NCBI GenBank assembly: GCA_903830985.1
Contig: CAIKVZ010000293.1
Location: forward strand, 3,785-67,784
Length of the DNA: 64,000 nt
Reading direction: 5' to 3'
DNA from: an uncultured beta proteobacterium
Lineage (GTDB): Bacteria > Pseudomonadota > Gammaproteobacteria > Burkholderiales > Burkholderiaceae_C
Of the stretch, positions 10,028 to 31,223 are shown one piece after another (the stretch's first letter is position 1; every line of letters starts with the position of its first letter). Under the pieces are notes generated by a model. It was not told the DNA's origin. It made no database searches and worked only from the letters and a program-made list of their open reading frames with translations. The position numbers and the translations under genes were made by a program.

Positions 10028-10894
10028 ATGTCGTCACCCAATCTGCATCCCATGCTCAACGTGGCCGTCAAGGCCGCACGCGCCGCCGGCGCCATCATCA
10101 ACCGCGCCGCGCTGGATGTGGAAGCGGTGCGCATTTCGCAAAAGCAGCTCAACGATTTCGTCACCGAAGTCGATCACGCCAGCGAAAAAGTCATCATCGA
10201 GACCATGCTCACGGCCTATCCCGGTCACGGCATCCTGGCCGAAGAGTCGGGCTCCGAGCACGGCGCCAAGGATTCCGAATGCGTGTGGATCATCGATCCG
10301 CTGGACGGCACAACCAACTTCATCCATGGACTGCCGGTGTACTGCGTGAGCATTGCGCTGGCGGTGCGCGGCAAGGTCGAGCAGGCGGTGATTTACGACC
10401 CGACGCGCAACGACCTGTTCACCGCCACCAAGGGCCGCGGCGCCTACCTCAACGACCGGCGCCTGCGCGTTTCCAAGCGCACCCGGCTGAGCGAGTGCCT
10501 GCTGTCCACGGGCTTTCCATTTCGTCCTGGCGACAACCTCAAGAGCTACCTGAACCTGATGGGTGAAGTGATGCAGGCCAGCGCAGGCTTGCGCCGCCCC
10601 GGTGCCGCAGCGCTGGACCTGGCCTATGTGGCTGCCGGCTATACCGACGGCTTCTTCGAGAAGGGTTTGCAGCCCTGGGACGTGGCAGCAGGGTCGCTGC
10701 TGGTCACCGAAGCCGGTGGCCTGGTCGGCAACTTCACCGGTGAAGCGGTGTTTCTGGACCAGCAGGAATGCATGGCCGCCAGCCCGAAGATCTACGGCCA
10801 GATGGTGCCGCTGCTGGGCAAGTACAGCAAGTTCGCCAGCGCCGGCGAAAAGGCCCAGGTGCGTCAGGCTGGCAACGAAGCCGCGCAATCCTGA
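10028..10894 (+). CDS. suhB: Inositol monophosphatase family protein (SuhB)
   Basis: 288-aa ORF with [44 protein letters not shown]. Confidence 0.9.
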
Positions 10895-13764
10895 AGCAGG
10901 CGCAACAACTCGGCCTCGGGCGCGGGTCGCCCAAACAGATAGCCCTGGTAAGACTGGCAGCCCAGGGCCTGCAAAAATTCACGCTGCCCCTGGGTCTCCA
11001 CGCCTTCGGCCACCACATCCAGACCCAGGCTGTGCGCCAAGGTCACGATGGTGCGCGCAATGGCCGCAGCGTTGTTGTCGGTGAGCACATTGCAGACAAA
11101 GGAGCGGTCGATCTTGAGTTGCTCCAACGGCAGGCGGTTCAGATAGGCCAGGGACGAATAGCCGGTGCCGAAATCGTCCAGCGCAAATCCCACGCCGTGG
11201 CGCTTGAGGGCCGCCATCTTCTCGATGATGTCCTCCACGTCATTGAGCAGCAGGCTCTCGGTCAGCTCCAGTTTGAGCCGGGACGCCGGCGCGCGGGTCT
11301 GCTCCAGCACGGACAGCACCTGCGTGGCAAAGTCGTCCTGGCGGATCTGCGCGGCGCTCACGTTCACCGCCAGGTGCAGGTGCGCGGTGCGCGCGTCCTG
11401 CGACCAGACGGCAAGGCGCTCGCAGGCCAGTTGCAGCACGCGCTGGCCCAGCGGCAGGATCAGACCGGTCTGCTCGGCCACGCCAATGAAGTCTCCCGGC
11501 ATCACCATGGCGCGCTGCGCCGGCTGCCAGCGCACCAGCGCTTCAGCACCCACCAGTCGCGCGTCGTGGTCCACCACCGGCTGAAAGTGCAGCAGCAGTT
11601 CGTCGCGCTGCAAGGCCACGCGCAAGTCGGCTTCGACCTGCACCCGCTCGGACACCGAGCGCTGCATCGCCGGGTCGAAAAAACGCAAGGTGTTGCGACC
11701 TGCCGACTTGGACTGGTACATCGCCAGATCGGCCTGCTTGAGCAACTCCTCCACGCTGTGCGGACCACCGTCAAACAGCGTCACGCCGATGCTGGGCGAG
11801 CTCAGGTGCAGCTTGCCCCCCACATGAAACGGCGCGTGAAAGGCGCCAAGAATTTTGTCGCCCACAGCCTGCGCATGCAGCGTGGCTTCCGCCGGGACCG
11901 CGCTCAGACCTTCGACCATGACGATGAACTCGTCGCCACCCAGACGCGACACGGTGTCAATGGCGCGGACACACTGACACAGTCGCAGCGCCACCTGACG
12001 CAGCAATTCGTCGCCGATGTCGTGCCCCATGGTGTCGTTGAGCGTCTTGAAATTGTCCAGATCGATGAATAGCAGCGCGCCCTGGGTCTGGTGCCGTTGT
12101 GCCGATTCCAGCGCCTTGCCCAGGCGGTCCAGCATCAGGCGCCGGTTCGGCAAGGTCGTGAGCGGATCGTAGAACGCCAGGCTGAGCGTGGCCTGCTCGG
12201 CCAGCTTGCGTTCGGTGATGTTTTGACCGACACCACGGTAGCCGCAGAACGTACCGTCGCCGGCAAAGATCGGCAGTCCGCTGATCGACACCCAGTAAGG
12301 CGCACCCTTACCATCGAGTCGATGTAACTCCAGATGACGAAAGTCCTGATGGGCACGCAGCACGTCATGGTGTTCCTCCCAGTCGAGTTCGTTCATGTTG
12401 AGCGCCCCCAGGGCCCAGCGCGTCATGCCGATCACTTCGAGTTGGGGCATGCCGGCCTTGTGCGCATCAAAGCCGTCAAAGCGCACGAAGCGAAACTGCT
12501 CGTCCATCTCCCAATACCAGTCCGAAGACAGTTGGGTCAGGCCGCGAAACCGCTCTTCGCTGGCGCTCAAGGCCTGTTTGGTTTCGAAATAATCGGTCAC
12601 ATCGGAGAATGTGCGCACCCAGCCGCCGTCGGCCACGATCTTGCTCTTGACTTCGAGAAAGCGCCCGCTGCGCGTCTTGCGCCAGTAGTTCACCGGCAAG
12701 TCCGTCTTGCTCAGTGCGCCATGCTGAAATTCTGCCGCCAGGTGCTGGCGCACGCCGGGAAAGGCCAGGCTGTACTCCTCGCCGAAGTCGCCGCGGTCGC
12801 GCTGCAGCTGAAAGACCTCGCGAATATTCGGGTTTCGCGCCATCAACTCGACCGGCAGCTCCAGCAACTCGCACAGCCGCTGGTTGTAGTGCAGCACCGT
12901 GCCGTCCGCGGCGATGCGCAAGATGCCCTGGGAGATGCTGGCCATGGACAGCTCCAGCAGCTGCGACTTGTGCGCCAGCTGCTGCGCTGCCACGCGCAAT
13001 TGTTCTTCCGCCTTGTGCGCATAGGACACATCCATCACCGTGCCGCAAACGCGCAGCGGCTCACCCTGCGCGTCGCACTGCACGACGCGGCCGTGGCTGA
13101 GCACCCAGACCCAGTGGCCGAGCTTGTGGCGCACGCGGTACTCCCAGCGCAGCAGGCTGGCAGGGCCCAGACTCCCTGCCGCAGCCAGCAGATGCGGCAA
13201 GTCCTCGGGGTGGATGCGCTGCTGCAACAGGGTGGAGTTCCAGACCAACTCATCAGGGGCAAAGCCCAGCATGGCGCAGGCGCGGTCGCTCAGTGCCAGG
13301 GCGCCGCTGTCCTGCCAGCGCTCCCACCAGCCCATGTCGGCGTGGGTCAGTGCCAGATCGAGACGTTCGCTGATGTCTTGCAGCCGAGCCGTGGTCTGGG
13401 AGCGCAGCATGGCGGCCTGCACCTGCGCGGCCAGCATGGCCAGCCAGGCGCCAGCGGGGTCGATCAGCACGTAATCGGTAAAGCCCTCGGACAAGGCGCG
13501 CGACGCCGCAAACTCCTGTCCCGGGCTGATGCAGATCAGCGTGGGCGCCAAACCCAGAACGTCGCACAGATCGAAGGCGTTGCCGTCGACCAGCTTGTAG
13601 CGCACCAGCACGACGTCAAAGCTGCCCTGTGCCAGTGCTTGCTGCGCCTGGGATACGCCCGAAGCGGTTTCCACATGCCAGGCCAAGCCCTGATCCGCCA
13701 CGGCCGCTGTCAGCGCCTGGGCGCAGTGGACCTCACTCTCAACGAGCAACAGGGCGATGGACAT
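10864..13764 (-). CDS. Multidomain c-di-GMP protein: degenerate receiver, three PAS-like regions, GGDEF, EAL
   Basis: 966-aa ORF. GGDEF block [16 protein letters not shown] includes an RxxD I-site 5 residues upstream. EAL blocks [23 protein letters not shown]. Confidence 0.9.
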
Positions 13765-17676: not shown

Positions 17677-19587
17677 ATGCACATACGTCATGGCCTGCTG
17701 ATACTTGGGACGCTGCTGTGCCTCATGACGCAGCACGCCTGGGCGCAGTCCGAGCCGCGGCTGGCGCTGCTGATTGGCAACTCGGCGTACCGGTCCTCAC
17801 CCCTGGCCAACCCGGTGAACGATGTGCGGCTCATGGAGAGCGCGCTCAAGGAAACCGGCTTCACCGTGATCAAGGCCGAAAACGCGTCGATACGCGAGAT
17901 GCGTCGACTGGTACGCGACTTTGGCGACAAGTTGAAGGCCTCGGGCGGCGTGGGACTGTTCTATTTCGCGGGCCACGGCGTGCAGGTGCGCGGCGAAAAT
18001 TATCTGGTCTCGACCGATTCGGACATCCGCAACGAGGACGAGGTGGCCGACGATTCGATCAATGCCAGCGTCATCCTGGAAAAGATGCAGGGCGCGGGCA
18101 ACCGCATGAACCTGATCGTGCTCGACGCCTGCCGCAACAACCCCTTCGCCGTGAAATCGCGCAGCGCCGCGTCGGGCCTGGCCACCATGAGCGCGCCCAG
18201 CGGCTCGCTCGTCGCCTACGCCACGGCGCCGGGTTCGGTGGCGTCGGACGGGAGCGGCAACAACGGCCTGTACACCCAGCATCTGGCCAAGGTGATTCGC
18301 CAACCGGGGCTGCCTGTGGAAGAGGTTTTCAAGCAGGTGCGCGCCGCCGTGCGCCGTGCCAGCAACAACCAGCAGACACCCTGGGAAAACACCGCGCTGG
18401 AGGGCCAGTTCTACTTCAAGGCGCCGCCGGTGCAGGCCGAAGCCTTGCCGGCACCGGTGGCCGCGCGCCCGCCGTCCAATGAACCGGCGACGCTGGAGCT
18501 GATGCTGTGGGAGAGCGCCAAGAGCGCGACCACTTTGGGTGAATTGCAGGCCTACCTGAACCGTTACCCGAACGGCTTTTTCGCCGACATGGCGAAGGCG
18601 CGCATGGCGGCGCTGGGCGGTGTCGCCAACGACAAGGCGGCCGCGGAAAGGATCGCCAATGAGCGGGCTGAGTCCCAGCGCGCTGCGGCCGAGCGCGACG
18701 CGCAGGCGGCCAGACTGAAGACCGCCAACGAGTTTGCCACGGCGCAAGCCAGCCGAAAGGACGCAGAGGAACGCGCAGCGGCAGGCGCGAAACTGCAGAC
18801 TGCCGCCGAGCGTGCCGCAACTGAAGCGAAGCTGAAATCTGCGTCGGATCGTGTTGCAAATGAGGAAGCTCAGGCGGCGCAACAGTCTGCTGCAGCTTTG
18901 GCATTGGCAGTCGACCAGTGGAGTTGGGAGAAAATTCGCTTCAGCCAGAACCGGACTGAACTCGAGGCCTACCTGATGCAATTCCCGGACGGAAGCTTTT
19001 CTGCAGTGGCTAGGAGCCGGTTGGCACAGCTTGGAGCGGCACCGGCAACGCTTGCGCCCGGTCCAGTGCAGGCAGCGGCACCGAAGGCGGGCGACGTGAT
19101 CGGCACGATGGTGCTGACGGATACGCTCACGGGAATCAAGAGCGAGCTGGAAGTCACCGTGCTTGAGGCCGATGCGCAGAAGATCATGTACTCGACGGGG
19201 GATGTGATTGGAAGGGACGGCAAGGTATTGCAGGTCCGTGTCGGAGAAGTTGTGCTGGAACTCTTGTCTGGATCACTGTGGACAGTGCCGATAAAGGCCG
19301 GAGCGTCGGGCGAGGCCACAGTTCGCACGGGGATTGCTGCGGGCAGCCAGAAGGGCGAGTTGCAATGGAAGACATTGGATGCAGGCAATGGCAAGATCCG
19401 CGTTGATTCGACTGTTCAATATAGGGTGACGAACTCTAACGGAATCACGAATTTGGGGTCTGGGAATTGGCTGGCAAGCTACGTCAGCGGCCAACCAATT
19501 CCTGAGTCTTTTTCCACGAATATCAGAGGCGGAGCGGCTGCCAACGCCATCTTCAATTTATTCACGGCCGAACTGAAATTTCATTGA
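17677..19587 (+). CDS. Exported caspase-fold (peptidase C14) protein A: signal peptide, C14 domain, helical motif, Ala/Glu/Arg coiled coil, second helical motif, beta-rich C-terminal domain
   Basis: 636-aa ORF with signal LLILGTLLCLMTQHAWA-QS. C14 blocks LALLIGNSAYRSSPLANPVNDV, FYFAGHG (His100), LIVLDACRNNPF (Cys152). Confidence 0.85.
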   Translation: MHIRHGLLILGTLLCLMTQHAWAQSEPRLALLIGNSAYRSSPLANPVNDVRLMESALKETGFTVIKAENASIREMRRLVRDFGDKLKASGGVGLFYFAGHGVQVRGENYLVSTDSDIRNEDEVADDSINASVILEKMQGAGNRMNLIVLDACRNNPFAVKSRSAASGLATMSAPSGSLVAYATAPGSVASDGSGNNGLYTQHLAKVIRQPGLPVEEVFKQVRAAVRRASNNQQTPWENTALEGQFYFKAPPVQAEALPAPVAARPPSNEPATLELMLWESAKSATTLGELQAYLNRYPNGFFADMAKARMAALGGVANDKAAAERIANERAESQRAAAERDAQAARLKTANEFATAQASRKDAEERAAAGAKLQTAAERAATEAKLKSASDRVANEEAQAAQQSAAALALAVDQWSWEKIRFSQNRTELEAYLMQFPDGSFSAVARSRLAQLGAAPATLAPGPVQAAAPKAGDVIGTMVLTDTLTGIKSELEVTVLEADAQKIMYSTGDVIGRDGKVLQVRVGEVVLELLSGSLWTVPIKAGASGEATVRTGIAAGSQKGELQWKTLDAGNGKIRVDSTVQYRVTNSNGITNLGSGNWLASYVSGQPIPESFSTNIRGGAAANAIFNLFTAELKFH

Positions 19588-19669
19588 TGCACCATCTTCC
19601 AGCCATCCAATCCAGTACCTCTTTGATACGCCAGCACCGACAATCCACCCCAACAGCATTGAGACAACC

Positions 19670-20164
19670 ATGACGCCACATTACCCACAACGCCTGGCCT
19701 GGATCCTGGCGCTGTCCCTCTCCCTTCTGGCCTGCGCCTCCAGCCCCGATCCGCAGCCCCTCGCGCCGCCGCAGGCCGAACTGCAGTTCGTCGATCTTCA
19801 GGGCTTTGACCGCGATCTGAATGGTTCGCTCTCGGCGCCGCTGCCCCGGGTGGAAGTGGCTTTCTACGACCGCATTGTTCCCAGCGCCATGCCCGAGCGC
19901 CTGCAGCACTGGATGGCGGCCGTGGAAGCCGGCGGTGGCAAGGTCAGCATCATTCCCGTCAAACCGACAGTGACGGCGAAGAACCCGTTTCTGGTGATCA
20001 GCGCCATCAGCACGCTGTGGAGCGCCTCCAAAATGATGCGCGAGGCCAGCAGCGAGGCCAGGTTCAAGAGTGCGCAAACCTTTGACGCCGAAATCGTTCT
20101 CAAGCAGGACGCGCAGGGCGAATCCGTGGTGGACAAGGTGGTCTTCGTACAACGCAAAAAATAG
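19670..20164 (+). CDS. Lipoprotein, function unknown
   Basis: 164-aa ORF with lipobox ALSLSLLAC-ASS. I recognise no family motif. It is in the operon, 9 nt upstream of the OmpA-like gene. Confidence 0.7.
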   Translation: MTPHYPQRLAWILALSLSLLACASSPDPQPLAPPQAELQFVDLQGFDRDLNGSLSAPLPRVEVAFYDRIVPSAMPERLQHWMAAVEAGGGKVSIIPVKPTVTAKNPFLVISAISTLWSASKMMREASSEARFKSAQTFDAEIVLKQDAQGESVVDKVVFVQRKK

Positions 20165-20173
20165 GCGGGCCCG

Positions 20174-20686
20174 ATGCGACTCAGCATTCTCCCTGGACTG
20201 CTATGCCTGGCGGCGGCGGTAGCAGCCCTGGCGCAAACCGCCACGCCCAGCGCCGAGCAGATGGTCGAGCAGTTGCGCGCGGCGCCGCTGACCCGCAACC
20301 TCGCGGTGCAGGCGGTGGCCGGGTTGGCCGCAGCCGCACCGGCCAACCGCCCTTCGCTGTCGCTGCTGATCCAGTTCGACTTCGATTCGGCGCGCATCCG
20401 CAGCGAGAGCCAGGGCGCGTTGATGACGCTGGCGCAGGCCTTGCAGTCGCCTGAACTTCGCACCGTGCGCTTCGCTGTGGAAGGTCACACCGACGCCAAA
20501 GGCAGGGCCGACCACAACCAGCGCCTGAGCCAGCAGCGCGCTGAGGCGGTGCGCCAATTTCTCGGCGCCCAGGGCGTGGACGACACTCGCCTGCTGGCCG
20601 CAGGCATGGGATCGAGTCAACTGGCTGTCACCGGCCAGCCATACTCGGCCCTGAACCGGCGCGTGCGCATCGTCAATCTGCAGTAG
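20174..20686 (+). CDS. OmpA_C-like peptidoglycan-binding protein (short, no beta-barrel)
   Basis: 170-aa ORF with signal LCLAAAVAALA-QT. OmpA_C blocks FDFDSARIRSES, VEGHTDAKGRADHNQRLSQQRAEAV, NRRVRIV. Confidence 0.85.
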   Translation: MRLSILPGLLCLAAAVAALAQTATPSAEQMVEQLRAAPLTRNLAVQAVAGLAAAAPANRPSLSLLIQFDFDSARIRSESQGALMTLAQALQSPELRTVRFAVEGHTDAKGRADHNQRLSQQRAEAVRQFLGAQGVDDTRLLAAGMGSSQLAVTGQPYSALNRRVRIVNLQ

Positions 20687-20718
20687 CCGCGCGGCCCATT
20701 CCCGGCCCTTTTGAATGG

Positions 20719-22638
20719 ATGCATCACAGCATGACCCACCGCCATCAGTTGCACCGCAAACACTCGCCCCTCACCGTGGCAACAGCGCTGCTGTGCGCGT
20801 CCCTTGCGCTGCCAGGTCAGGCACAACCCGCAGCAACGGCCAAGGCGCCGCCAGGCGAGCGCAACCTGCAGGTGCAGGCGACAGCGCCTGTCGCCATCAA
20901 CAATGCGCAGCGCTTCGCCCTGGTGATCGGCAATTCGGATTACAGGGACGCCCCCTTGAGCAACCCGGTGAACGACGCGCGCGCCATCGCGGCAGCACTC
21001 AAGGAATCCGGATTTACCGTGATGTCGCGCGAAAACACCGACCAGCGCGGCATGCTGGCGGCGCTGCGTGAATTCGGCGACCACCTGCGCGCCGGTGGCA
21101 CCGGGCTGTTCTATTACGCCGGGCACGGCATGCAGATCAAGGGACGCAACTACCTGATCCCGGTGGGTGCGAACATCGAGCGCGAAGACGAAGTGGCCTA
21201 CAGCGCCGTCGACGCGCAGGCCGTGCTCGACAAGATGGAGGCGGCAGGCAACGTGGCCAACATCATGATCCTGGACGCCTGCCGCAACAACCCGTTCACG
21301 CGCAGCATGCGCTCCGGCCAGGCCGGCCTGGCGCAAATGGACGCGCCCGTGGGTACGCTCGTGGCCTACGCCACCTCGCCCGGCGCGGTGGCCAGCGACG
21401 GCGCCGGCGCCAATGGCCTGTACACGCAGCACCTGCTGACTGCCATCCGTGAGCCCGGCAACAAGGTGGAGGACGTGTTCAAGCAGGTGCGCGCCAATGT
21501 GCGGCGCGACTCGGCGGGCAAGCAAGTGCCCTGGGAATCCACTTCGCTGGAAGGCGACTTCTACTTCAAGCTAAGGCCCGCAACCGTGGCCCCGGTCGCA
21601 GTGGACCCGGCGCTGGCGCTGGAGTCCGCGCTGTGGGACGCGGTCAAGGACAGCAGCCTGCCGATCGAAGTTCGCGCCTATTTGAACCGCTACCCGAAGG
21701 GGCGTTTTGCAGAACAGGCGCAGGAGCGTTTGAAGCAACTCCAAGTGGCAGCCACGACCGCGACCGGCGCCGCAGTCCCGTTGGCAACAGACCAGGCCAA
21801 GGCCGAGGCCGCACGCAAGGCCAGTGCCGAACTCGCCAAAGCCGAGGCAATGCAGTTGGAGCAACGGACCAGGGCACAAGCCCAATTGGTGGTTGCGGCC
21901 GAGGTGGCACGGGCCAGGGACCAGGCAGCTGCCAGACAACGCAAGGACGAACAGTTGACCAGCCTGGCCAAGCCTGCGACGCCGCAAGTCGCAACAGCCG
22001 CGGCGCCGGTCAAACTCAGCCGGCCCCTGGCAGCCAGCAACAAGAATGGCTTCACCGTGGGAGACCGCTGGCGTTATCAGGTGGTAGACAAATTCAAGAA
22101 GGAAGTCGTGCGCAACTGGAGCCGCAAGGTCGACGCCGTCAACAGCGATGGCAGCCTGAAACTGAACGGGGGCACAGTGGATTGGGCGAGTGACGGTTCG
22201 ACCAAGGCAGCGCGTGGCGACGGGGGGTTCTTGCGCGAGTACTCGCCTGCAATGCCTTCGCAGCCGAGCAGTTTGAAGATCGGCTTCTCTGAACCAGTGA
22301 AGCTGACTTTGGCGTACCGCAACGCTGATGGCGTCAGCGGCACAGAGGAACTCGAGGGCACGATCACCGTGCTTGCCAAGGAAACGATCAAGGTGCCCGC
22401 AGGCGAATTTGAAACACTGAAAATCGAGTTATCTGTCACCACCAACGGCAAGAATTCAAGCTCTGGCACAGGCTACTACCAGAGAACCAAACAGGCCGCC
22501 TGGTACGTTCCCGCGCTGCGTAATTATGTCGCGTTGGAAGTCGAGGTGCGCAACCGAACCGGTCAGTTGCTGACTTTTGAGCGCAACGAGCTCACCAGCT
22601 TCTCGGTGCATGGCGCCGAACTGCTGGCGCAGCACTGA
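20719..22638 (+). CDS. Exported caspase-fold (peptidase C14) protein D, paralog of A with the same architecture
   Basis: 639-aa ORF with signal TVATALLCASLALPGQA-QP. C14 blocks FALVIGNSDYRDAPLSNPVNDA, FYYAGHG (His136), IMILDACRNNPF (Cys188). The start could be a few codons downstream (MTHRHQ). Confidence 0.85.
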   Translation: MHHSMTHRHQLHRKHSPLTVATALLCASLALPGQAQPAATAKAPPGERNLQVQATAPVAINNAQRFALVIGNSDYRDAPLSNPVNDARAIAAALKESGFTVMSRENTDQRGMLAALREFGDHLRAGGTGLFYYAGHGMQIKGRNYLIPVGANIEREDEVAYSAVDAQAVLDKMEAAGNVANIMILDACRNNPFTRSMRSGQAGLAQMDAPVGTLVAYATSPGAVASDGAGANGLYTQHLLTAIREPGNKVEDVFKQVRANVRRDSAGKQVPWESTSLEGDFYFKLRPATVAPVAVDPALALESALWDAVKDSSLPIEVRAYLNRYPKGRFAEQAQERLKQLQVAATTATGAAVPLATDQAKAEAARKASAELAKAEAMQLEQRTRAQAQLVVAAEVARARDQAAARQRKDEQLTSLAKPATPQVATAAAPVKLSRPLAASNKNGFTVGDRWRYQVVDKFKKEVVRNWSRKVDAVNSDGSLKLNGGTVDWASDGSTKAARGDGGFLREYSPAMPSQPSSLKIGFSEPVKLTLAYRNADGVSGTEELEGTITVLAKETIKVPAGEFETLKIELSVTTNGKNSSSGTGYYQRTKQAAWYVPALRNYVALEVEVRNRTGQLLTFERNELTSFSVHGAELLAQH

Positions 22639-22649
22639 GTCCCCGACAC

Positions 22650-24314
22650 ATGCAGTGGTGGCAATCTTTCACACGCCCCAGCGGCGCCTGGTCCACGGCG
22701 CGTGTCACCTGGGGCCTGGCCATGGCATTTTGCCTGTGGGCCGTGCTCGACCTGATGCTGCTGCAAGTCTCGGGAGGCCTGGGCAGCTCCACTTATGACA
22801 CCATGGTGCGCGCGCGCTTTTATGCCGCGCCGTCCGATCCGAGACTGGTGATTATCGACATCGACGAAGCCTCTCTGCTGCGCATGGCGCCGGAATTCGG
22901 CCGCTGGCCCTGGCCGCGCGACACCCTGGCCACGGTGCTCGACCATGTGGAAAAACAGCAGCCCCAGGCCATCATCTGGGATGTCCTGTTCAGCGACGCC
23001 GACCGCCTTTCGCCGGGAGGCGACCGCGCTTTTGACGAAGCCGCACGGCGCAGTGTGCACAGCCATTTTTCCGTGGTGCGCCTGCCCCAGGAATACGACG
23101 CACAAAGCCGGGTGACGCAGTCCACGCTGCCCAGCCTGTGGGACAGCGTGCCGGTCACGCCGGGAACCAGACCGTCCACGGTGGCGCTGATCGCACCGGT
23201 CCTGCCGGCAGTGGCCGCATCCCGATTGGGCTACAACAACGGCTATCCCGACGCCGACGGCGTGCTGCGCCGCTACCGTCTGGCGCAGACCCTGGCCGAC
23301 GGCAGCAGGATTCAGTCGCTGGCCCTGAGCGTGGCGCGCAGCCTGACGCCTGCCATTAGCCCCCCTGACGAACCGGCCAACGCGCTGATCCTGTGGCGCG
23401 CGCGCGCGAACCAGTACCCGCGTGTGCCTTTTGCCGACGTCTTTGCCGCCGCCGAGGGTGGCGTCCCTGGGCGCCCCCTGCCCAGCTTTGCCGGCAAGAT
23501 CGTGCTCATTGGCGCCACCGCGTCGAGCCTGCACGACATCCACCCCACGCCCTTGGTGGCGCAACAGGCCGGTGTCGACAGTCTGGCCACGGTCATCGAC
23601 AACGCCGTGAACCAGCGCCGCCTCATCGAACTGCCGCGCTGGCTTCAGGCCTTGCTGGCCATGGCACTGTGCCTGGGCATGGCGGCCTGGTCGCAACGCC
23701 AAGGGCTGGGTTCGCTCGACCCGGCCCTGTTCCTGCTGCCCGGAACGCTGCTGGGCGTGAGCTACCTGTCGCTCAATGCCGAGTGGTTTTGGCACAGCCC
23801 GGTCTTCCTCGACCTGCACCTGCCGGCTGGCATGGCTCTGCTCTACATGGCCTTGCTGCGCGGCTGGAACGGCCGGCACCGTGACCATTGGTGCGGCGAC
23901 GTCCCCGCCTGCGACGAAGTCCGGGGCGTGATGGCATTGGCATTGGAGCGTTCGGCCACCGGCATCGTGCTGGACGCTCTGCTGTTGGCCCTGCACCGGC
24001 ATGCGCCGCAATGTCGCTTGCTCGGGGGCGACGCCAGTGCCACCTGGCCGGCCCAAATGCGCTGGCCCGAGTTGCACCAGACCGTGGCCGTGGCCGGGCC
24101 GATGTCGCAGCTCCTTACCCTGCGTCAGGCCTTGCAGACCGCGCCGGACAGCGCGCGGCAATTGGGGCCCGTGGCGTGTGCGTTGCCGCTGCCCGTGCCG
24201 ACCCCTACCAGCCGCAGCGAATGGGCGCAGCACGCCCGCATCGCCTGCGCCCAACGCCCTTTCACAAGCCCACAGTCCAACCACGAAAGCCCGCATGTCG
24301 ACATCACCCTTTAA
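22650..24314 (+). CDS. CHASE2-domain membrane receptor with an about 150-aa cytoplasmic tail of no recognisable family
   Basis: 554-aa ORF with an N-terminal TM (WGLAMAFCLWAVLDLMLLQV). CHASE2 hallmark LVIIDIDEASLLRMAPEFGRWPWPRDTLATVLDHV...IIWDVLFSD. Three TM segments at about aa 331-405, then an orphan tail. Confidence 0.8.
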   Translation: MQWWQSFTRPSGAWSTARVTWGLAMAFCLWAVLDLMLLQVSGGLGSSTYDTMVRARFYAAPSDPRLVIIDIDEASLLRMAPEFGRWPWPRDTLATVLDHVEKQQPQAIIWDVLFSDADRLSPGGDRAFDEAARRSVHSHFSVVRLPQEYDAQSRVTQSTLPSLWDSVPVTPGTRPSTVALIAPVLPAVAASRLGYNNGYPDADGVLRRYRLAQTLADGSRIQSLALSVARSLTPAISPPDEPANALILWRARANQYPRVPFADVFAAAEGGVPGRPLPSFAGKIVLIGATASSLHDIHPTPLVAQQAGVDSLATVIDNAVNQRRLIELPRWLQALLAMALCLGMAAWSQRQGLGSLDPALFLLPGTLLGVSYLSLNAEWFWHSPVFLDLHLPAGMALLYMALLRGWNGRHRDHWCGDVPACDEVRGVMALALERSATGIVLDALLLALHRHAPQCRLLGGDASATWPAQMRWPELHQTVAVAGPMSQLLTLRQALQTAPDSARQLGPVACALPLPVPTPTSRSEWAQHARIACAQRPFTSPQSNHESPHVDITL

Positions 24315-26184
24315 ACCGCGCCTGGGCGCCATTGTGCTGGCAATGGCCGGCTTGCTCACGGCCGGAACCGCCGCTGCTCAGACCACAGCCACCTCACGCG
24401 CCACCGAACTGCGCGCCGACAAACTGGCCAGCGCGCCGATACTCGCGCCCCTGAGCGCGGGCGCCAGCCTGCGCCTGATCAGTCTGGAAGGCGGCTGGGC
24501 CTATGTGGAGCAGACCCTGCCTGCGGGGAGACAGGTGGGCTGGGTCCGTGCTTCGGCGCTGAACCTGCAGGCTGGCACCTCACTGGTTTCCAGCCAGGAC
24601 ACCGGACGCCAGGCCACGGGTGGTGGCGTCAACGCCGCCCTGACCCTGGGCGTGCGAAGCCTGCCGCCGCGGGTGAACCGGCATGCGTTGATCATCGGCA
24701 TCAGCCGTTACGCCGATCCGGCCACGCCACAGCTGCCGGGTGCGCGCATCGACAAGCAGTCGGCCACGCAGATGGCGCAAGCGATGCAGGTGCCAATGAG
24801 CAATATCCGCTATCTGCAGGACGAGCAGGCTACGGGCAAGGGAATCCGCCAGGCTCTGCAGGAGCTCAACGACCAGGTACAGGACGGGGACCGCGTGTTT
24901 ATTCATTTCTCGGGGCACGGCACGCGCTACAACGACCCGGCCGCTGGCGGCTGTGTCGAAGCCCTGCTGGCTTACGACGGCGGACAAAGCGGCGTCATCA
25001 CGAACCATGAAATGGCCGACCTGCTCAAGGGCATCACCAACAAGACCGACAAGCTGTTCGTCATGTACGACGCCTGCCATTCGGGCGGCGTGGTACAGGC
25101 CGCCAGCGCGGTGCGCACGCGCGGCCTGCTCAACAGCGACGACGAGGGCCTGCTGCGCCCCAAGTTCGCGGGCATTTCGCAAGAGTGCGGCCGTCCCGTC
25201 AACATCAAGTCACGCAATCTGGTGGTGGAAACGGCGGCTCAGGGCGCCCTGCCGCAAGACATCATCCACGTCAGCGCGTCGCGCGATAACGAGATCAGCT
25301 TTGACGATGAACTCAAGGGCGGACTGGCCACGCAGTTCATGCGCGACTGCATGCTGCGCGACGCGGTCGACCTGGACAACTCGGGCTCCATCAGCATGGA
25401 AGAGATCCGCCAGTGCGCCCAGGAGAAGATCAACAAGCGCATGGCGCACGACGTGAACTTCAAGCCGCACAACCTGGTGCTCAACGGCAACGCGGCCTTC
25501 GTTCCGTCCTGGTTCGGCCTGGCCAGCACCGCACCGGTGAGCGCCATCGCGGCGACGCTCCCGCCCACGGGGCAAGCTGCAACCAACACCGTGCAGCCTG
25601 CGCCCGTGGTGGCGGCACCGGTTACAACAGCGCCAGCGGTCGCGGCACCGCTCAGCGGCGCGCAGGCTTTGCAGCAGCTGTTCGAACAGCGCGACGCCAA
25701 GCGCCGTGTGCAACTCACCACAGCCAAGGACAAACTCAAGATCGGTCAGGACGCACTCGACCTGGCGGTGCAATCGGACCGCGCCGGCTACGTGTACGTG
25801 GCGCTGGCAGGATCGGACAACAAGTCGGTCTACCTGCTGTTCCCCAACGACCTGGACGCCAACAACCGGATCGAGGCGAACCAGCAACTGCTGCTGCCGC
25901 GACCGGCCTGGCGCGTCAAGGCCGCAGGACCGGTGGGTAAAGACCAACTGCTGGTGCTGGTTGCCGACGGCCCGCGCGACCTGCACGCGCTGGCCGCAGC
26001 CAAGGCCGGTCCCTTCGTCACCTCGCTGAACGACGCCCAGGGACGGGCCCAGTTGGGTGCCCTGCTGACGCGCTCCGCAACGGCGAATGGCGACAGCTGC
26101 AGCAGCCCCGCCGCGCGAAAGAAGAACCCGCAATGCTCCGACGCCTATGGCGCGGCCATGTTGACAGTAGAGGAGACAAAATGA
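24295..26184 (+). CDS. Exported SH3-like + metacaspase-like (C14) + EF-hand loop + DUF4384-like protein F
   Basis: In-frame part of track ORF 24001..26184. The ATG at 24295 gives MSTSPFKPRLGAIVLAMAGLLTAGTAAA-QT. Further blocks: SH3_3-like LRLISLEGGWAYVEQ...VGWVRASAL, IHFSGHG (His208), VMYDACHSGG (Cys261), DLDNSGSISMEE, and DUF4384-like GYVYVALAGSDNKSVYLLFPND. Overlaps the CHASE2 gene by 20 nt. Confidence 0.8.
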   Translation: MSTSPFKPRLGAIVLAMAGLLTAGTAAAQTTATSRATELRADKLASAPILAPLSAGASLRLISLEGGWAYVEQTLPAGRQVGWVRASALNLQAGTSLVSSQDTGRQATGGGVNAALTLGVRSLPPRVNRHALIIGISRYADPATPQLPGARIDKQSATQMAQAMQVPMSNIRYLQDEQATGKGIRQALQELNDQVQDGDRVFIHFSGHGTRYNDPAAGGCVEALLAYDGGQSGVITNHEMADLLKGITNKTDKLFVMYDACHSGGVVQAASAVRTRGLLNSDDEGLLRPKFAGISQECGRPVNIKSRNLVVETAAQGALPQDIIHVSASRDNEISFDDELKGGLATQFMRDCMLRDAVDLDNSGSISMEEIRQCAQEKINKRMAHDVNFKPHNLVLNGNAAFVPSWFGLASTAPVSAIAATLPPTGQAATNTVQPAPVVAAPVTTAPAVAAPLSGAQALQQLFEQRDAKRRVQLTTAKDKLKIGQDALDLAVQSDRAGYVYVALAGSDNKSVYLLFPNDLDANNRIEANQQLLLPRPAWRVKAAGPVGKDQLLVLVADGPRDLHALAAAKAGPFVTSLNDAQGRAQLGALLTRSATANGDSCSSPAARKKNPQCSDAYGAAMLTVEETK

Positions 26185-26663
26185 TTACGCATCGCACAAT
26201 TTTCTTTGGTTCACTCATCGGCCTGCTTACCTTATCGGCGCAGGCACAGGGCGGCCGCGGCCTGGCGGAAAACTGGCTGATCAGCCCGGCCGAGGCGCTG
26301 CAGTATCAGGGCGAGGAAGCGTTCAACGAGCCGCCGGCCCTGCGGCCCCGCGCGGTCATGCCGGTCATCGACATCCTGCGGCCCGAACCCGTGCCCGACC
26401 TGAAGGTGAAGGCGCCCTTCGCCATCGCCGTGCAGTTCCGGGCCCAGTCCGACGCAGCCATTGACCCGGCCAGCTTCAAGGTGTTTTACGGCGCCTTCAA
26501 ACTCGATATCACCGGTCGCATCACGACGCACGTGAAGGTCTCAGCCGATGGATTCACGCTGGACAACGCCCGCATCCCCGTGGGCAAACACCGTCTGACC
26601 TTGCACATCGAGGACGAAAAACAACGCGTCGCCGAGCGCGAGTTGCGCGTGGAAGTGGAGTGA
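26181..26663 (+). CDS. Small secreted protein, function unknown (last gene of the caspase operon)
   Basis: In-frame part of track ORF 26133..26663. ATG at 26181 overlaps the upstream stop (ATGA). Signal FFGSLIGLLTLSAQA-QG. The mature part is beta-strand-like (KVKAPFAIAVQF, FKLDITGRITTHVKV, HRLTLHIED). Confidence 0.65.
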   Translation: MITHRTIFFGSLIGLLTLSAQAQGGRGLAENWLISPAEALQYQGEEAFNEPPALRPRAVMPVIDILRPEPVPDLKVKAPFAIAVQFRAQSDAAIDPASFKVFYGAFKLDITGRITTHVKVSADGFTLDNARIPVGKHRLTLHIEDEKQRVAERELRVEVE

Positions 26664-27361: not shown

Positions 27362-28405
27362 ATGATCACCTACTACAACGAACTCCACGCCCTGCACCAG
27401 GGCAGGCTGGAAATGTTCCGCGGTGCGCTCGTTCCCTGTTTTGAAGTGCCGGCGCGCGTTGACCATGTGCGCGACGAATTGCTGCGCCGCGGGGGCGGCA
27501 CGCTGACGCCCAAGGCATTCCCCGACAGCGCGCTGCTCGGCGTGCACAGCGCGCGCTACCTGGATTTTCTGCAGCACGCTTGGGACGACTGGCTGGCGCT
27601 GGATCCGGCAAACGCCGGGCGCGACGCCCTGCCCTCGGTCTGGCCGATACGCGGCATGCGCAGCGACTTTTTACCGGACAACTTTTCCGCCCGCATGGGC
27701 CTGTTTTCCTTTGACGCGGGCACGCCGCTGACCAGCGGCACCTGGGCGGCGGCACGCGCCGGCGCCGACTGCGCGCTGAGTGCGGCGCACAGCGTGCTGC
27801 ACGGCGAGCGCGCAGCTTTTGCCCTGACGCGTCCGCCCGGCCACCACGCGGGGGCGGACTTCTTTGGCGGCTACTGCTTCCTGAACAACGCCGCGCTGGC
27901 GGCGCAGTCGCTGTGCGACGCAGGCCTGCAGCGCGTGGCCGTGCTGGACCTGGACTACCACCACGGCAACGGCACTCAGTCCATCTTCTATGAACGTGCT
28001 GACGTGTTCTTTGCCAGTGTGCACGGCGACCCGCGCACCGAATACCCCTTCTACTTGGGCCACGCGGACGAGACCGGCGCCGGCGCGGGGCTGGGCTGCA
28101 ATTTGAACCTCCCATTGGCGCGGGGCAGCGACTTTGTCACCTGGTCCGCCGCACTCGAACATGCTCTTGAAAAAATAGCAGCCTTCGGCGCCGACGCGCT
28201 CGTGGTTTCGCTCGGTCTGGACACCTTTGCCGGCGACCCGATCTCCGGCTTCAGCTTGCAAAGCGCCGACTACCTGCGGGTGGGCCAGCGCCTGGCCGCG
28301 GCAGGACTGCCCACGGTGCTGGTGTTCGAGGGCGGTTACGCCGTGGCCGAAGTCGGCGTGAACGCCGTCAATGTGCTCGAGGGCTTCGACACGATCAGTC
28401 CTTGA
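27362..28405 (+). CDS. Histone deacetylase-family (arginase-fold) deacetylase, acetylpolyamine amidohydrolase-like
   Basis: Track ORF 27305..28405 with the start moved to MITYYNE (ATG at 27362). Blocks RPPGHHAG, GYCFLNNAA, DLDYHHGNGTQ, SLGLDTFAGDP. Confidence 0.85.
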   Translation: MITYYNELHALHQGRLEMFRGALVPCFEVPARVDHVRDELLRRGGGTLTPKAFPDSALLGVHSARYLDFLQHAWDDWLALDPANAGRDALPSVWPIRGMRSDFLPDNFSARMGLFSFDAGTPLTSGTWAAARAGADCALSAAHSVLHGERAAFALTRPPGHHAGADFFGGYCFLNNAALAAQSLCDAGLQRVAVLDLDYHHGNGTQSIFYERADVFFASVHGDPRTEYPFYLGHADETGAGAGLGCNLNLPLARGSDFVTWSAALEHALEKIAAFGADALVVSLGLDTFAGDPISGFSLQSADYLRVGQRLAAAGLPTVLVFEGGYAVAEVGVNAVNVLEGFDTISP

Positions 28406-31139
28406 AATCTCCGCCAAAGGCGTAAACAAACTTTGCCGGATTCAGGTACTTGCGCAGCGCGGCGTTCACCTGTTCGACTGTCACCGAGGCGATCTGCGCG
28501 TCCACCTTTTGCGCCAGCAGGAAGTTGCGGTTCAGGTACAGGTTGGATGCCAGCGTGCCGGCCAGGTTGTTGTCCTGGGCCCGCGAGAGTCGACGAAAGC
28601 TCAGCAGGCTCTCCCGGGCTTCGGCCAGTTCCTTGGCGCCAAAACCGTCCTTCAGGGCACGCGCCACTTCCTCCCTGAAAGCGGTCTCGACCTTGTCGCG
28701 GTTTTGCGGCGCGAAGATGGCCGTGGCCTTCCAGTTGCTGTGCGGCTCGTGGTTGCTCCAGTTGATGCCGCTGCGCACGTCATAGCTCAAGCCGCCTTTT
28801 TCGCGGATGCGCACCCACAGCCGCGAAGACCCACCCTGGCCCAGCATGTAGTTGCCCACGAGCAGCGGCACGTAGTCAGCGTCGTTGTCGCTCAGGCCAA
28901 AAGCCTGCTCGACCTGCATGAAGGCGTTCTGCTTGTCTACGGCCTTGAACACCAGACGCTTAGGCTCCACCACCACCAGCGGGTTGGGCACGCGGGCAAA
29001 CGGCGCCTCGCTGGCCCAGTCACCGAGCGCCGCCGTCAGCGCCGGGACCGCCTTGGCTTCGTCGAAGTCGCCCACCAGCGCCGCCTGGGCCGACTGGGCG
29101 CCGTAGAACTTCTTGTGGAAAGCACGCAGCTGCTCTACCGTCAGCGCTTTGGTGGCTTCGACCATTTCGTCAAAGCTGGCGGCATAGCGCACATCGCCCT
29201 TGGGGTAGGGGTTGCCATAACGCTGCATCTCGTTTTCCACGATGGCCTCGGGGTCGGTGCGCTGCTCGTCGATGGCGGCCAGGGTCTGGCGCTTGTACTC
29301 CTCGAGCGCGTCGGGAGGAAAGCTGGCATGGCGCAGCACTTCACCCACCAGCGCCACAACGGCCGGCAGGTTCTCGCGCGTGGTCTTGATGCTGGCGCCG
29401 ACGCGGGTGGCGCCGCCGTGGAAGCCCACCTGGGCGCTCAGCTGGTCGAACTTGTCCTGGATCTGCTGGCGCGTCAGCGTCGTCGTGCCTTTGTCCAGCA
29501 TGGCGGCCGTGGCGTTGGCCACGTCTTCCAGACCGAACAGGCTTTTCTCGTCGCCCAGCTGCAGCGTCACGGTGCCGCTGACGACCTGGCCGCGCGCGCC
29601 CTTGGGCAGCAGGCTGAGCTTCATGCCATTGGCCAGCGCCTGGCTGCGCGTGCGCTGTTCGATGTTGGCCGGAGTGGCGTCAAACACTTCGGTGGCTGCG
29701 GCCACGGCCTCGCCCTTGTAGCCCTTCACCTGAGGCGCCACCTCCACCCTTGCCGGCGCGGGTGCGCGCTGCGGTTTTTCTGTGGGGATGTAGCTGCCCA
29801 GGGTGCGGTTGTCGCGCAGCAGGTAACTGGCCGCGACGCGGTTCACATCGGCCAGCGTGAGGCGACGCACCTGGTCGCGGTGCAAAAAGAACAGCCGCCA
29901 GTCACCCCCGGCAATCGATTCCGACAACGCCACGCCGACCTGCTCCGGGTTGGTGAAGTTCAGCTCCCAGCGTTTCAGGTATTTCAGACGCGCGCGCTCG
30001 AGCTCTTCCTGCGTCACCGGCTCGGTCGCCACCGATTCGAGGGTGGCCAGCATGGCGTCGCGCGCGCGGTCCAGGTCCTGGCCCGGAGCCAGTTGCAAAC
30101 CCATCAAGGTGAAGCCCGGATCCCGCAGACCCTGGGAAAAGGCAAACGACTCGGCGGCCAGTTGCTTCTCCACGACACGCGTGTGCAGCCTTCCCGAAGG
30201 CGTGTCCCCCAGCACCAGATCCAGCACCGCGATGGCGGCATAGTCGGGGCTGGCGCCGGGGGGAATGTGGTACAGCGCGTAGAGCGCGGGGCTGCCGCCA
30301 ACACGGCGTACGGTCACGCTTTTTTCGCCATCCTGTGCCGGGTCGATGGTGTAGAGCGGCGGCATCGGCATGGCCGGTTTCTTCAGCTTGCCAAAGGACG
30401 CGGCGATCCATTGGCGCACCTTGACCGGATCGAACTTGCCCGAGACGATGAGCGTCGCGTTGTCGGGGCGGTAGTAGGTCCGGTAGAACTGCTGCAGGCG
30501 CTCGATGTTCACGCCCTCGACGTCGGCGCGCGCGCCAATCGTGCTCTTGCCGTAGTTGTGCCACTGAAAGGCTGTGGCCATGACGCGCTCGAACAGGACG
30601 TTGCCGGCGTTGTTCTCGCCCATTTCCATTTCGTTGCGCACCACCGTCATTTCGGTGTCCAGGTCGCGCCGGGCGATGAAGCTGTGCACCATGGCGTCGG
30701 CCTGCCAGTTCAGGTACCAGCGCAGGTTTTCCTCGTTGTACGACAGGCTGGCAAAGTAGTTGGTGCGGTCCAGCCAGGTGGAGCCGTTGGCGCGCAGACC
30801 GCGCTTGGTGAACTCGGCCCAGACGCCGGGCGTGCCCGGTGTGCCCTTGAACAGCAAATGCTCAAGCAAATGCGCCATGCCGGTCTCGCCGTAGTTTTCG
30901 TGTCGGCTGCCGACGCGGTAGGTCACGTTCACCGTGGTCGTGGGCTTGCTGTCGTCCTGGATCAGCAGCACCTGCAGGCCGTTGGCCAGGACGTATTCGT
31001 CCACACCTTCGACCGAAGTCAGTTTGCTCATGCCGGCGGGCAGGCTCTGGGCTGGCAGGGCACAGGGCAGCACCATCAGCAGGCTTGCGCTCAGCAAGGT
31101 GAGCAGGGATTTGCGCAACAACATGGGGGAAGTCTCCAA
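28395..31139 (-). CDS. Exported M16-family (pitrilysin/PqqL-like) zinc peptidase, double-length
   Basis: 914-aa ORF with a signal-like N-terminus LLTLLSASLLMVLPCALPAQS and the inverted zinc motif GMAHLLEHLLFKG (HxxEH). The length fits four M16 half-domains. Confidence 0.9.
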   Translation of the reverse strand: METSPMLLRKSLLTLLSASLLMVLPCALPAQSLPAGMSKLTSVEGVDEYVLANGLQVLLIQDDSKPTTTVNVTYRVGSRHENYGETGMAHLLEHLLFKGTPGTPGVWAEFTKRGLRANGSTWLDRTNYFASLSYNEENLRWYLNWQADAMVHSFIARRDLDTEMTVVRNEMEMGENNAGNVLFERVMATAFQWHNYGKSTIGARADVEGVNIERLQQFYRTYYRPDNATLIVSGKFDPVKVRQWIAASFGKLKKPAMPMPPLYTIDPAQDGEKSVTVRRVGGSPALYALYHIPPGASPDYAAIAVLDLVLGDTPSGRLHTRVVEKQLAAESFAFSQGLRDPGFTLMGLQLAPGQDLDRARDAMLATLESVATEPVTQEELERARLKYLKRWELNFTNPEQVGVALSESIAGGDWRLFFLHRDQVRRLTLADVNRVAASYLLRDNRTLGSYIPTEKPQRAPAPARVEVAPQVKGYKGEAVAAATEVFDATPANIEQRTRSQALANGMKLSLLPKGARGQVVSGTVTLQLGDEKSLFGLEDVANATAAMLDKGTTTLTRQQIQDKFDQLSAQVGFHGGATRVGASIKTTRENLPAVVALVGEVLRHASFPPDALEEYKRQTLAAIDEQRTDPEAIVENEMQRYGNPYPKGDVRYAASFDEMVEATKALTVEQLRAFHKKFYGAQSAQAALVGDFDEAKAVPALTAALGDWASEAPFARVPNPLVVVEPKRLVFKAVDKQNAFMQVEQAFGLSDNDADYVPLLVGNYMLGQGGSSRLWVRIREKGGLSYDVRSGINWSNHEPHSNWKATAIFAPQNRDKVETAFREEVARALKDGFGAKELAEARESLLSFRRLSRAQDNNLAGTLASNLYLNRNFLLAQKVDAQIASVTVEQVNAALRKYLNPAKFVYAFGGDFKD

Positions 31140-31223
31140 AGGTCAATACGAGAAGTGCCTGCATCCTACCTTGACGCAGCGCACGCGCCAGACTAAACTA
31201 ATAACCCACTAGTCATTAAAAGA

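Follow-up and report, generated by a model that had tools for sequence, protein, structure and literature searches.

A conserved C-terminal domain without a detectable catalytic family in a CHASE2 receptor encoded among exported C14 peptidases

Introduction

The CHASE2 domain (PF05226) was reportedly defined in 2003, and we know of no ligand assigned to it. In the canonical CHASE2 receptors, such as the rhizobial CHASE2 adenylate cyclases and the RR-FecR-CHASE2 histidine kinases of Burkholderia, the last transmembrane (TM) helix is followed by an enzymatic output, which is either a class III cyclase or a PAS-HisKA-HATPase module. The subject of this work is a CHASE2 receptor that ends instead in a C-terminal tail of 149 amino acids (aa). 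Its gene lies in a stretch of 64,000 nucleotides (hereafter the window) from an uncultured beta proteobacterium of the Burkholderiaceae_C (assembly GCA_903830985.1, contig CAIKVZ010000293.1, positions 3,785 to 67,784). This CHASE2-tail receptor carries a novel, apparently non-enzymatic C-terminal domain.

Two envelope systems offer further points of comparison. In LapD-LapG, a cysteine protease of the periplasm is controlled by a receptor in the inner membrane whose cytoplasmic domain is non-catalytic, while YfiBNR combines an OmpA/Pal-like lipoprotein, a periplasmic repressor and an inner-membrane receptor. Exported bacterial caspase homologues are, to our knowledge, uncharacterised. A link between CHASE2 and caspase-fold peptidases is described in the cyanobacterial caspase-CHASE2 fusions and the EACC2 systems, where the caspase is fused N-terminally and predicted to be cytoplasmic (PMC3501461, PMC8195603). 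The same link is present at the locus described here, with the difference that the caspases are separate and exported and that the cytoplasmic element is the novel tail.

The receptor shares its membrane plan with the canonical CHASE2 receptors, to which its ectodomain is 28-40% identical; its nearest relatives among other CHASE2 proteins are the RR-FecR-CHASE2 kinases, with 28-31% identity confined to the ectodomain. Where these proteins carry an enzyme, it has a domain of about 130 aa with a predicted ferredoxin-like fold, apparently non-catalytic and not detectably related to their outputs, and where the RR-FecR-CHASE2 kinases adjoin FecR and a response regulator, it adjoins exported C14 peptidases. 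What the cluster shares with LapD-LapG is a periplasmic cysteine protease encoded beside an inner-membrane receptor whose domain on the cytoplasmic side is non-catalytic. However, LapD contains a HAMP domain, a degenerate GGDEF-EAL module that binds cyclic di-GMP and a LapD/MoxY periplasmic domain, none of which is detected by Pfam in the CHASE2-tail receptor, and the proteases are of LapG type in one case and of C14 type in the other. Like YfiBNR, the cluster groups a receptor of the inner membrane with small periplasmic proteins and a protein of OmpA type, but YfiN has a GGDEF output, which is missing here, and no YfiR homologue is detected. A literature search returned no work on CHASE2 proteins without an output domain, and none on this cluster.

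Results and Discussion

Architecture and Topology of the Receptor

Pfam assigns CHASE2 to aa 32-344 of the protein (E-value 5e-48; 164 bits against a gathering cut-off of 26.3). The full-length AlphaFold2 (AF2) model, with a predicted local distance difference test score (pLDDT) of 90 and a predicted template modelling score (pTM) of 0.85, contains helices at residues 16-38, 330-351, 359-379 and 390-414, so that one TM helix precedes the ectodomain and three follow it, as in other CHASE2 receptors. Both results agree with the sequence-only reading of this DNA, made from the letters and open reading frames (ORFs), which had proposed a CHASE2 ectodomain and three TM segments up to about aa 405. 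The distribution of Lys and Arg residues fits the positive-inside rule with both termini inside; taking into account this distribution and the number of TM helices, the tail is predicted to face the cytoplasm. It extends from W406 to L554 (positions 23865-24311; the stop codon follows at 24312-24314). The length of about 149 aa given earlier is therefore correct, although the string then quoted began one residue early, at G405.

Conservation and Selection

Relatives of the receptor were sought among 5.8 billion proteins. More than 1000 were returned, and the best 120 were inspected: they are 455-652 aa long (mainly 530-600), cover 82-100% of the query and all contain CHASE2. No other Pfam domain is present in them, except for an additional weak GDSL-lipase match in P0056. 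In alignments of 24 and 76 members, reaching down to about 41% whole-protein identity, the tail core (aa 404-497) is conserved throughout. W406 and W414 of the juxtamembrane helix are invariant and N407 and R410 nearly so. In the core itself, L441, D442, A452, P453, R456, D461, W466, P467, W472, P473 and G483 are invariant, while C455, L470, E474, L475, A480, P484, L488 and R522 are nearly invariant in the tail. A metal or redox site formed by H451, C455 and C415 was considered and rejected, as none of these residues is invariant across the orthologues.

The distances between the conserved elements differ markedly in their variability. The linker between W414 and strand beta1 ranges from 7 to 42 residues among the 120 orthologues, with long low-complexity inserts in P0028 and P0033, and the second linker (aa 498-521) ranges from 13 to 41 residues. 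The span from D461 to W472 in the beta2-beta3 loop, where most of the invariant tail residues are located, is 10 residues in all but one of the orthologues (119/120).

Selection was estimated as the ratio of non-synonymous to synonymous substitutions (dN/dS), calculated pairwise by the Nei-Gojobori method for 146 orthologue pairs. The values are 0.12 for the ectodomain, 0.08 for the TM helices, 0.16 for the tail core (aa 406-497) and 0.34 for the C-terminal part of the tail (aa 498-554). The G+C content at third codon positions (GC3) of the tail is 0.83, equal to that of the remaining gene. Since the reading frame and the codon-position composition match those of the rest of the gene, the tail is coding sequence and not a chance extension of the ORF. 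A spurious ORF or a frameshift masking an output domain is likewise ruled out by dN/dS, GC3 and the equal lengths of the orthologues. The sequence-only reading had allowed for the tail being unconserved low-complexity sequence; for aa 404-534 the orthologues show conservation, and it is lacking only in approximately the last 20 residues.

Predicted Fold

When the tail was modelled alone by AF2 from 38 sequences, the model (pLDDT 83.8, pTM 0.77) reproduced the elements of the full-length one: beta1 (425-432), alpha1 (438-451), beta2 (456-458), a loop (459-472), a short helix (473-477), beta3 (478-484), alpha2 (485-497), short strands (508-516) and alpha3 (522-534). This order corresponds to a predicted ferredoxin-like beta-alpha-beta-beta-alpha-beta fold with an added C-terminal helix. 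The beta2-beta3 loop is the sole stretch with pLDDT below 50 in both models. Collectively, the alignments, the dN/dS values and the models indicate that the tail is a conserved, folded and previously undescribed domain under purifying selection. Of the earlier suggestion of a novel small signalling domain, the domain is thus retained, whereas the word "signalling" is not borne out by these results.

A Foldseek search of the tail model against PDB gave no significant match. The best matches are CutA1, PII-like proteins, EF-G/EF-2 domains, acylphosphatase, RRM domains and dimeric alpha/beta barrels, with E-values of 0.02-0.4 and template modelling scores (TM-scores) of 0.3-0.5. The top matches are without exception small proteins of ferredoxin-like fold with a regulatory or oligomeric character. 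On the basis of the models, the fold class of the tail is clear, while homology to any family is not. The PII/GlnB-like and CutA1 proteins (2cz4, 2zfh, 1xk8) stand at the top of the list, with E-values of 0.02-0.1 and TM-scores of 0.3-0.5; they have the same order of secondary structure elements and a long beta2-beta3 loop, which in the tail occupies the position of the PII T-loop. The tail differs from them in its membrane tether, its extra C-terminal helix and the absence of a PII signature and of any Pfam P-II or CutA1 match.

The CHASE2 ectodomain of the full-length model has no structural relative in PDB either (best Foldseek E-value 0.45), and no structural characterisation of the CHASE2 fold seems to exist. 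Its invariant acidic and histidine residues are clustered as DIDE 70-73, D111/D116/D118 and H295-D296-H298, which might form a putative metal or ligand site.

Search for a Known Output Domain

The sequence-only reading found no recognisable output domain in the tail, and the present searches bear this out. Pfam finds no domain at E-values up to 10, neither in the tail alone nor in the TM helices and tail together, and no match covering the tail was obtained with NCBIfam, PADLOC or the PDB sequence profile. In 38 orthologous tails Pfam detects no output domain, and none of them matches a cyclase or GGDEF domain at E-values up to 10. A Ser/Thr kinase output, looked for by Pfam only, was not found. 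In PADLOC, only generic caspase and MotB-like matches were returned, so that a known defence system was rejected as an explanation.

Targeted profile comparisons were made with hhalign; rhizobial replicons supplied the CHASE2-cyclases, and alignments from PDB the further cyclase domains and the GGDEF domains. Against a profile of two CHASE2-cyclases the tail gives P 0.1, a signal that is lost with five diverse cyclases (P 0.48). A degenerate class III cyclase (PF00211) was therefore rejected; there is no Pfam match to this family, and the tail is only about half as long as a class III cyclase domain. The comparison with five GGDEF domains gives P 0.16 on an unrelated region, as against P 0.003 for the positive control of cyclase versus GGDEF profiles, and a degenerate GGDEF (PF00990) was rejected as well. 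The GGDA sequence is restricted to one subclade: the two glycines are not conserved, only D461 is. The C-termini of CHASE2-histidine-kinases were discarded on P 0.79. Three of the 38 tails show a weak match to Lipase_GDSL_2 (best E-value 0.004), but an SGNH/GDSL lipase is not a plausible candidate, as the similarity is at the level of the motif (GGDA versus GDS), the serine is missing and the tail is too short. Within these targeted comparisons, which assign no known output domain to aa 404-534, the tail is without a detectable catalytic family.

Distribution of the Tail Domain

An exhaustive search with a hidden Markov model profile of the tail over 1.84 billion cluster representatives returned 40 clusters only. 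In the longest matches (about 500-565 aa) the tail is at the C-terminus, seven matches of 276-400 aa proved by Pfam to be CHASE2 fragments truncated at the N-terminus, and shorter matches resemble fragments as well. Every match whose architecture could be checked, by match position for the full-length proteins and by Pfam for the seven of intermediate length, is the C-terminus of a CHASE2 protein; no stand-alone or otherwise fused tail domain was seen among the 40 clusters.

In a scan of 185,579 species genomes by whole-protein alignment, 171 encode a relative. Among the best 80 of these, all that carry a genus or family name are Comamonadaceae (Polaromonas, Rhodoferax, Variovorax, Limnohabitans, Brachymonas and Ramlibacter), except for two metagenome-assembled genomes (MAGs) binned as Cytophagales and Bordetella; the rest of the 80 are labelled only as Betaproteobacteria, Burkholderiales or Pseudomonadota. 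Cultivable carriers are Variovorax terrae, Rhodoferax bucti and Limnohabitans spp. Judging from these searches, the tail domain is lineage-specific and confined to one CHASE2 family.

Two short sequences were considered in looking for a stand-alone version. P0152 (L092, 6001-6648), which is among the 40 clusters, is an Arg-rich ORF of 215 aa downstream of cysS, with a piece of the tail domain at residues 50-114 (E-value 1e-11) and no CHASE2 part; it is probably the remnant of a decayed gene. P0158 is located on a contig of 717 bp.

Gene Cluster around the Receptor

The receptor gene is the fifth of seven genes (17677-26663), listed with the parts of the receptor in Table 1. All six other products have a signal peptide or a lipobox, and the His/Cys dyad is intact in all three C14 peptidases; in C14_F, the signal peptide at the N-terminus (MSTSPFKPRLGAIVLAMAGLLTAGTAAAQ) precedes the C14 and DUF4384 domains. 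Neither orfB nor orfG belongs to a Pfam or NCBIfam family.

Table 1. Features of the CHASE2-tail gene and its cluster (positions in the window)
Feature	Position	Strand	Basis
C14_A, exported C14 peptidase, first gene of cluster	17677..19587	+	Pfam C14 E 3e-42; signal peptide
orfB, small lipoprotein, lipobox LLAC	19670..20164	+	translation; found in 27 loci
OmpA-like peptidoglycan-binding protein, upstream partner, conserved	20174..20686	+	Pfam OmpA; 72/82 loci
C14_D, exported C14 peptidase, in part of family	20719..22638	+	Pfam C14 E 4e-41; signal peptide, intact His/Cys dyad
CHASE2-tail gene, whole, 554 aa and stop	22650..24314	+	ORF list, translation, Pfam CHASE2, AF2
N-terminal cytoplasmic helix (aa 2-13) and TM1 (aa 16-38)	22650..22763	+	AF2 helices; R9 and R18 agree with positive-inside rule
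Periplasmic CHASE2 ectodomain, aa 39-329	22764..23636	+	Pfam PF05226
TM2-TM4, aa 330-403	23637..23858	+	AF2 helices
Juxtamembrane Trp/Arg-rich extension of TM4, aa 404-414, consensus RxWNGWRRNxW	23859..23891	+	conservation; within AF2 helix 390-414
Variable-length linker, aa 415-424	23892..23921	+	orthologue lengths
Conserved core of tail domain, aa 425-497 (beta1, alpha1, beta2, loop, beta3, alpha2)	23922..24140	+	AF2 tail model, invariant residues, dN/dS
Conserved, fixed-length beta2-beta3 loop, aa 459-477, motif D-A-x-A-T-W-P-A-x-L-R-W-P-E-L	24024..24080	+	orthologue lengths
Variable linker and short strands beta4 and beta5, aa 498-521	24141..24212	+	AF2 strands 508-516
C-terminal helix, aa 522-534, pattern R..LA..A..AWA	24213..24251	+	AF2 pLDDT ~93; conservation
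Unconserved C-terminal end and stop codon	24252..24314	+	columns mainly gaps in orthologues
C14_F, exported SH3b-like protein with C14 peptidase and DUF4384	24295..26184	+	Pfam C14, DUF4384; SH3_3 in orthologues; signal peptide
orfG, small exported protein, last gene of cluster	26181..26663	+	signal peptide from M17 of ORF; 39 loci

The order (orfB) - OmpA - (C14_D) - CHASE2 - C14_F - (orfG) is nearly universal across 80 genomes and is kept in the most divergent family members too. In nearly all of the 80 loci C14_F lies directly downstream of the CHASE2 gene, and the two genes overlap or abut across the orthologous loci. In the window the overlap is exactly 20 nucleotides (24295-24314, from the ATG of C14_F), as had been read from the sequence for this SH3-metacaspase gene. 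C14_F is thereby predicted to be translationally coupled to the CHASE2 gene.

When all flanking ORFs of the 80 loci were clustered, no conserved cytoplasmic gene was found beside the cluster; in particular, no ECF (extracytoplasmic function) sigma factor or other cytoplasmic target gene family, of the kind expected for a membrane anti-sigma or regulated-proteolysis receptor, is conserved there. The tail is the only element of the cluster that faces the cytoplasm.

Some further features of the partner genes were noted. The OmpA-like gene has sub-threshold NCBIfam matches to YfiB and YiaD. Within the C14 peptidase of C14_F (window 24295-26184), aa 356-376 form an EF-hand loop (DLDNSGSISMEEI) that scores below the Pfam gathering threshold and hints at calcium dependence as in metacaspases. 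The plasmid NZ_CP039644 of Azospirillum sp. TSA2s (L094, 175440-190753) contains repeated OmpA - caspase - DUF4384 modules beside a tubulin-like-domain protein and has no CHASE2 gene among them, which suggests that the protease/OmpA/DUF4384 module extends beyond the CHASE2-tail family. In plasmid matches from Caballeronia and Burkholderia (H28, H31, H34), annotated Ser/Thr protein kinases share 34-40% identity at their C-termini with the C-terminus of C14_F that contains DUF4384; because of this resemblance, DUF4384 would also be an extracytoplasmic module of kinases.

Proposed Role of the Tail

The tail is a domain of about 110-130 residues with no sign of catalytic activity. A linker whose length varies tethers it to the final TM helix, and it presents an invariant flexible loop of fixed length (D461, W466-P467, R-W472-P473-E474). 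Such a loop on a small, flexibly tethered domain suggests a binding module rather than a rigidly coupled enzymatic output, and the tail would then work by binding and not by catalysis: it may oligomerise the receptor, dock through the conserved loop onto a cytoplasmic factor whose gene lies outside the vicinity, or do both. It would thus form the cytoplasmic end of the receptor, whose periplasmic CHASE2 domain would act together with the OmpA-like protein and the exported C14 peptidases of the cluster. The favoured direction of signalling is outside-in, and we give a probability of roughly 40% to the outside-in recruitment of an unlinked cytoplasmic factor by a binding or oligomerising tail.

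The sequence-only reading had suggested that the output may be protein-protein control of the co-encoded periplasmic proteases, or of their export or tethering. This proposal is weakened: with a tail predicted to be cytoplasmic and all other products exported, the topology makes it unlikely that the tail directly controls the proteases once they are mature. The tail may contact the proteases before their export, or be coupled to them across the membrane through the CHASE2 ectodomain.

Several observations weigh against outside-in recruitment. Flexible linkers pass on conformational changes poorly, and the absence of a linked cytoplasmic gene in the 80 loci is awkward for an outside-in pathway. 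Any partner, ligand or oligomeric state of the tail is putative; the Foldseek matches are non-significant, and the analogy to PII and CutA is at the level of the fold. Moreover, the envelope is where the cluster as a whole acts, so that the tail could be an input or merely structural. As an input, in a manner similar to LapD, it would sense a cytoplasmic ligand (e.g., a nucleotide second messenger or a metabolite) or a protein and, via the membrane helices, set the hold or release of the co-encoded cysteine proteases by the CHASE2 domain. This inside-out arrangement is consistent with the export of all other cluster products, whereby the effect of the system must be in the envelope, with the lack of a linked cytoplasmic effector gene, and with the predicted translational coupling between CHASE2 and C14_F, which suggests that receptor and protease form a stoichiometric pair. 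The fold class, which is like that of small ligand-binding regulators such as the PII-like proteins, the conserved loop at the T-loop position and the LapD-LapG precedent point the same way. However, neither Pfam nor NCBIfam detects a nucleotide-binding motif or family, the linker of 7-42 aa contains no HAMP domain or other rigid coupler, all characterised CHASE2 proteins signal outside-in, and OmpA-caspase-DUF4384 modules occur without a CHASE2 gene; we consider inside-out control rather unlikely. The same grade, in our estimate, applies to a purely structural tail, which would stabilise or oligomerise the four-helix anchor or dock on the membrane by its Trp/Arg-rich elements, while the periplasmic CHASE2 domain scaffolds a complex of proteases and OmpA-like protein. 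Five conserved Trp and several Arg residues in the juxtamembrane helix and the loop would suit such a role, as would the full-length pTM, which suggests a tail packed in a fixed position against the membrane domain, the prevalence of obligate oligomers among the ferredoxin-like matches (CutA1 trimers, dimeric barrels) and the lack of a linked partner gene. It is harder to reconcile with an invariant flexible loop of fixed length, a feature more often seen in binding sites than in packing elements, and with purifying selection on the core as strong as that on the ectodomain.

Two further explanations fare much worse against the data above. By eye, the succession of beta1, helix and beta2-beta3 hairpin, in which beta2 bears a basic residue and the turn an acidic one (CRVxGGDA), is similar to KFIGD of class III cyclases or to RxGGDEF, and it was exactly this stretch that hhalign aligned with the profile of two CHASE2-cyclases; on this basis the tail could correspond to the N-terminal half of a palm domain, of class III cyclase or GGDEF type, that has lost catalysis. 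Given the disappearance of this signal with the larger cyclase profile, the GGDEF and control values, the negative Pfam results for the 38 tails, the absence of cyclase and GGDEF domains from the Foldseek top 50 and the conservation of D461 alone in GGD, a degenerate canonical output is highly improbable. Non-functional read-through, either as a chance extension of a high-GC ORF or as a spacer kept for the ribosome-binding region of the downstream gene, has in its favour the unconserved last residues, which overlap the next gene, and the tendency of high-GC genomes to yield long spurious ORFs, for instance the antisense ORF of 598 aa at 22563-24359. It is at variance with the dN/dS of both parts of the tail, with the persistence of the invariant residues at about 41-55% identity, with the confident AF2 fold and with a codon-position GC equal to that of the rest of the gene; for aa 404-534 it is refuted, and overall its probability is minimal.

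Returning to the tail as a binding module, a bolder proposal can be formulated, which we regard as doubtful. The tail would represent a new class of cytoplasmic switch domain, and the CHASE2 receptor would partner directly with the exported caspase-like proteases, either controlling them from the inside (LapD-like logic with a new ligand-binding fold) or being activated or processed by them and then recruiting a cytoplasmic target via the invariant WP...RWPE loop. If true, such a direct trans-envelope pathway between CHASE2 and caspases would give the first functional handle both on CHASE2 domains and on periplasmic bacterial caspases. By itself, the tail combines a widespread type of fold with a restricted taxonomic distribution, so that its importance for the moment is moderate. 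The cluster as a whole is a tractable entry into two long-uncharacterised families and a compact test case: a lone receptor is accompanied by an OmpA-like anchor and between one and three exported C14 peptidases, and its only element in the cytoplasm has a handful of invariant residues that are amenable to mutation.

Surroundings of the Cluster

One betaproteobacterial MAG has another CHASE2 gene, a paralogue, about 7 kb downstream of the cluster (L049, 16194-17390), truncated where the locus ends. Upstream of the cluster in the window, positions 10864-13764 of the minus strand encode a PAS-PAS-PAS-GGDEF-EAL protein of 966 aa, which is not conserved beside the cluster in other genomes. Downstream, two ORFs of more than 900 aa are nearly coextensive, at 28371-31196 on the plus strand and at 28395-31139 on the minus strand. 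The minus-strand ORF encodes an M16 peptidase; since only this one has a family, the plus-strand ORF is taken as a high-GC artefact, and the antisense ORF over the CHASE2 gene is likewise one.

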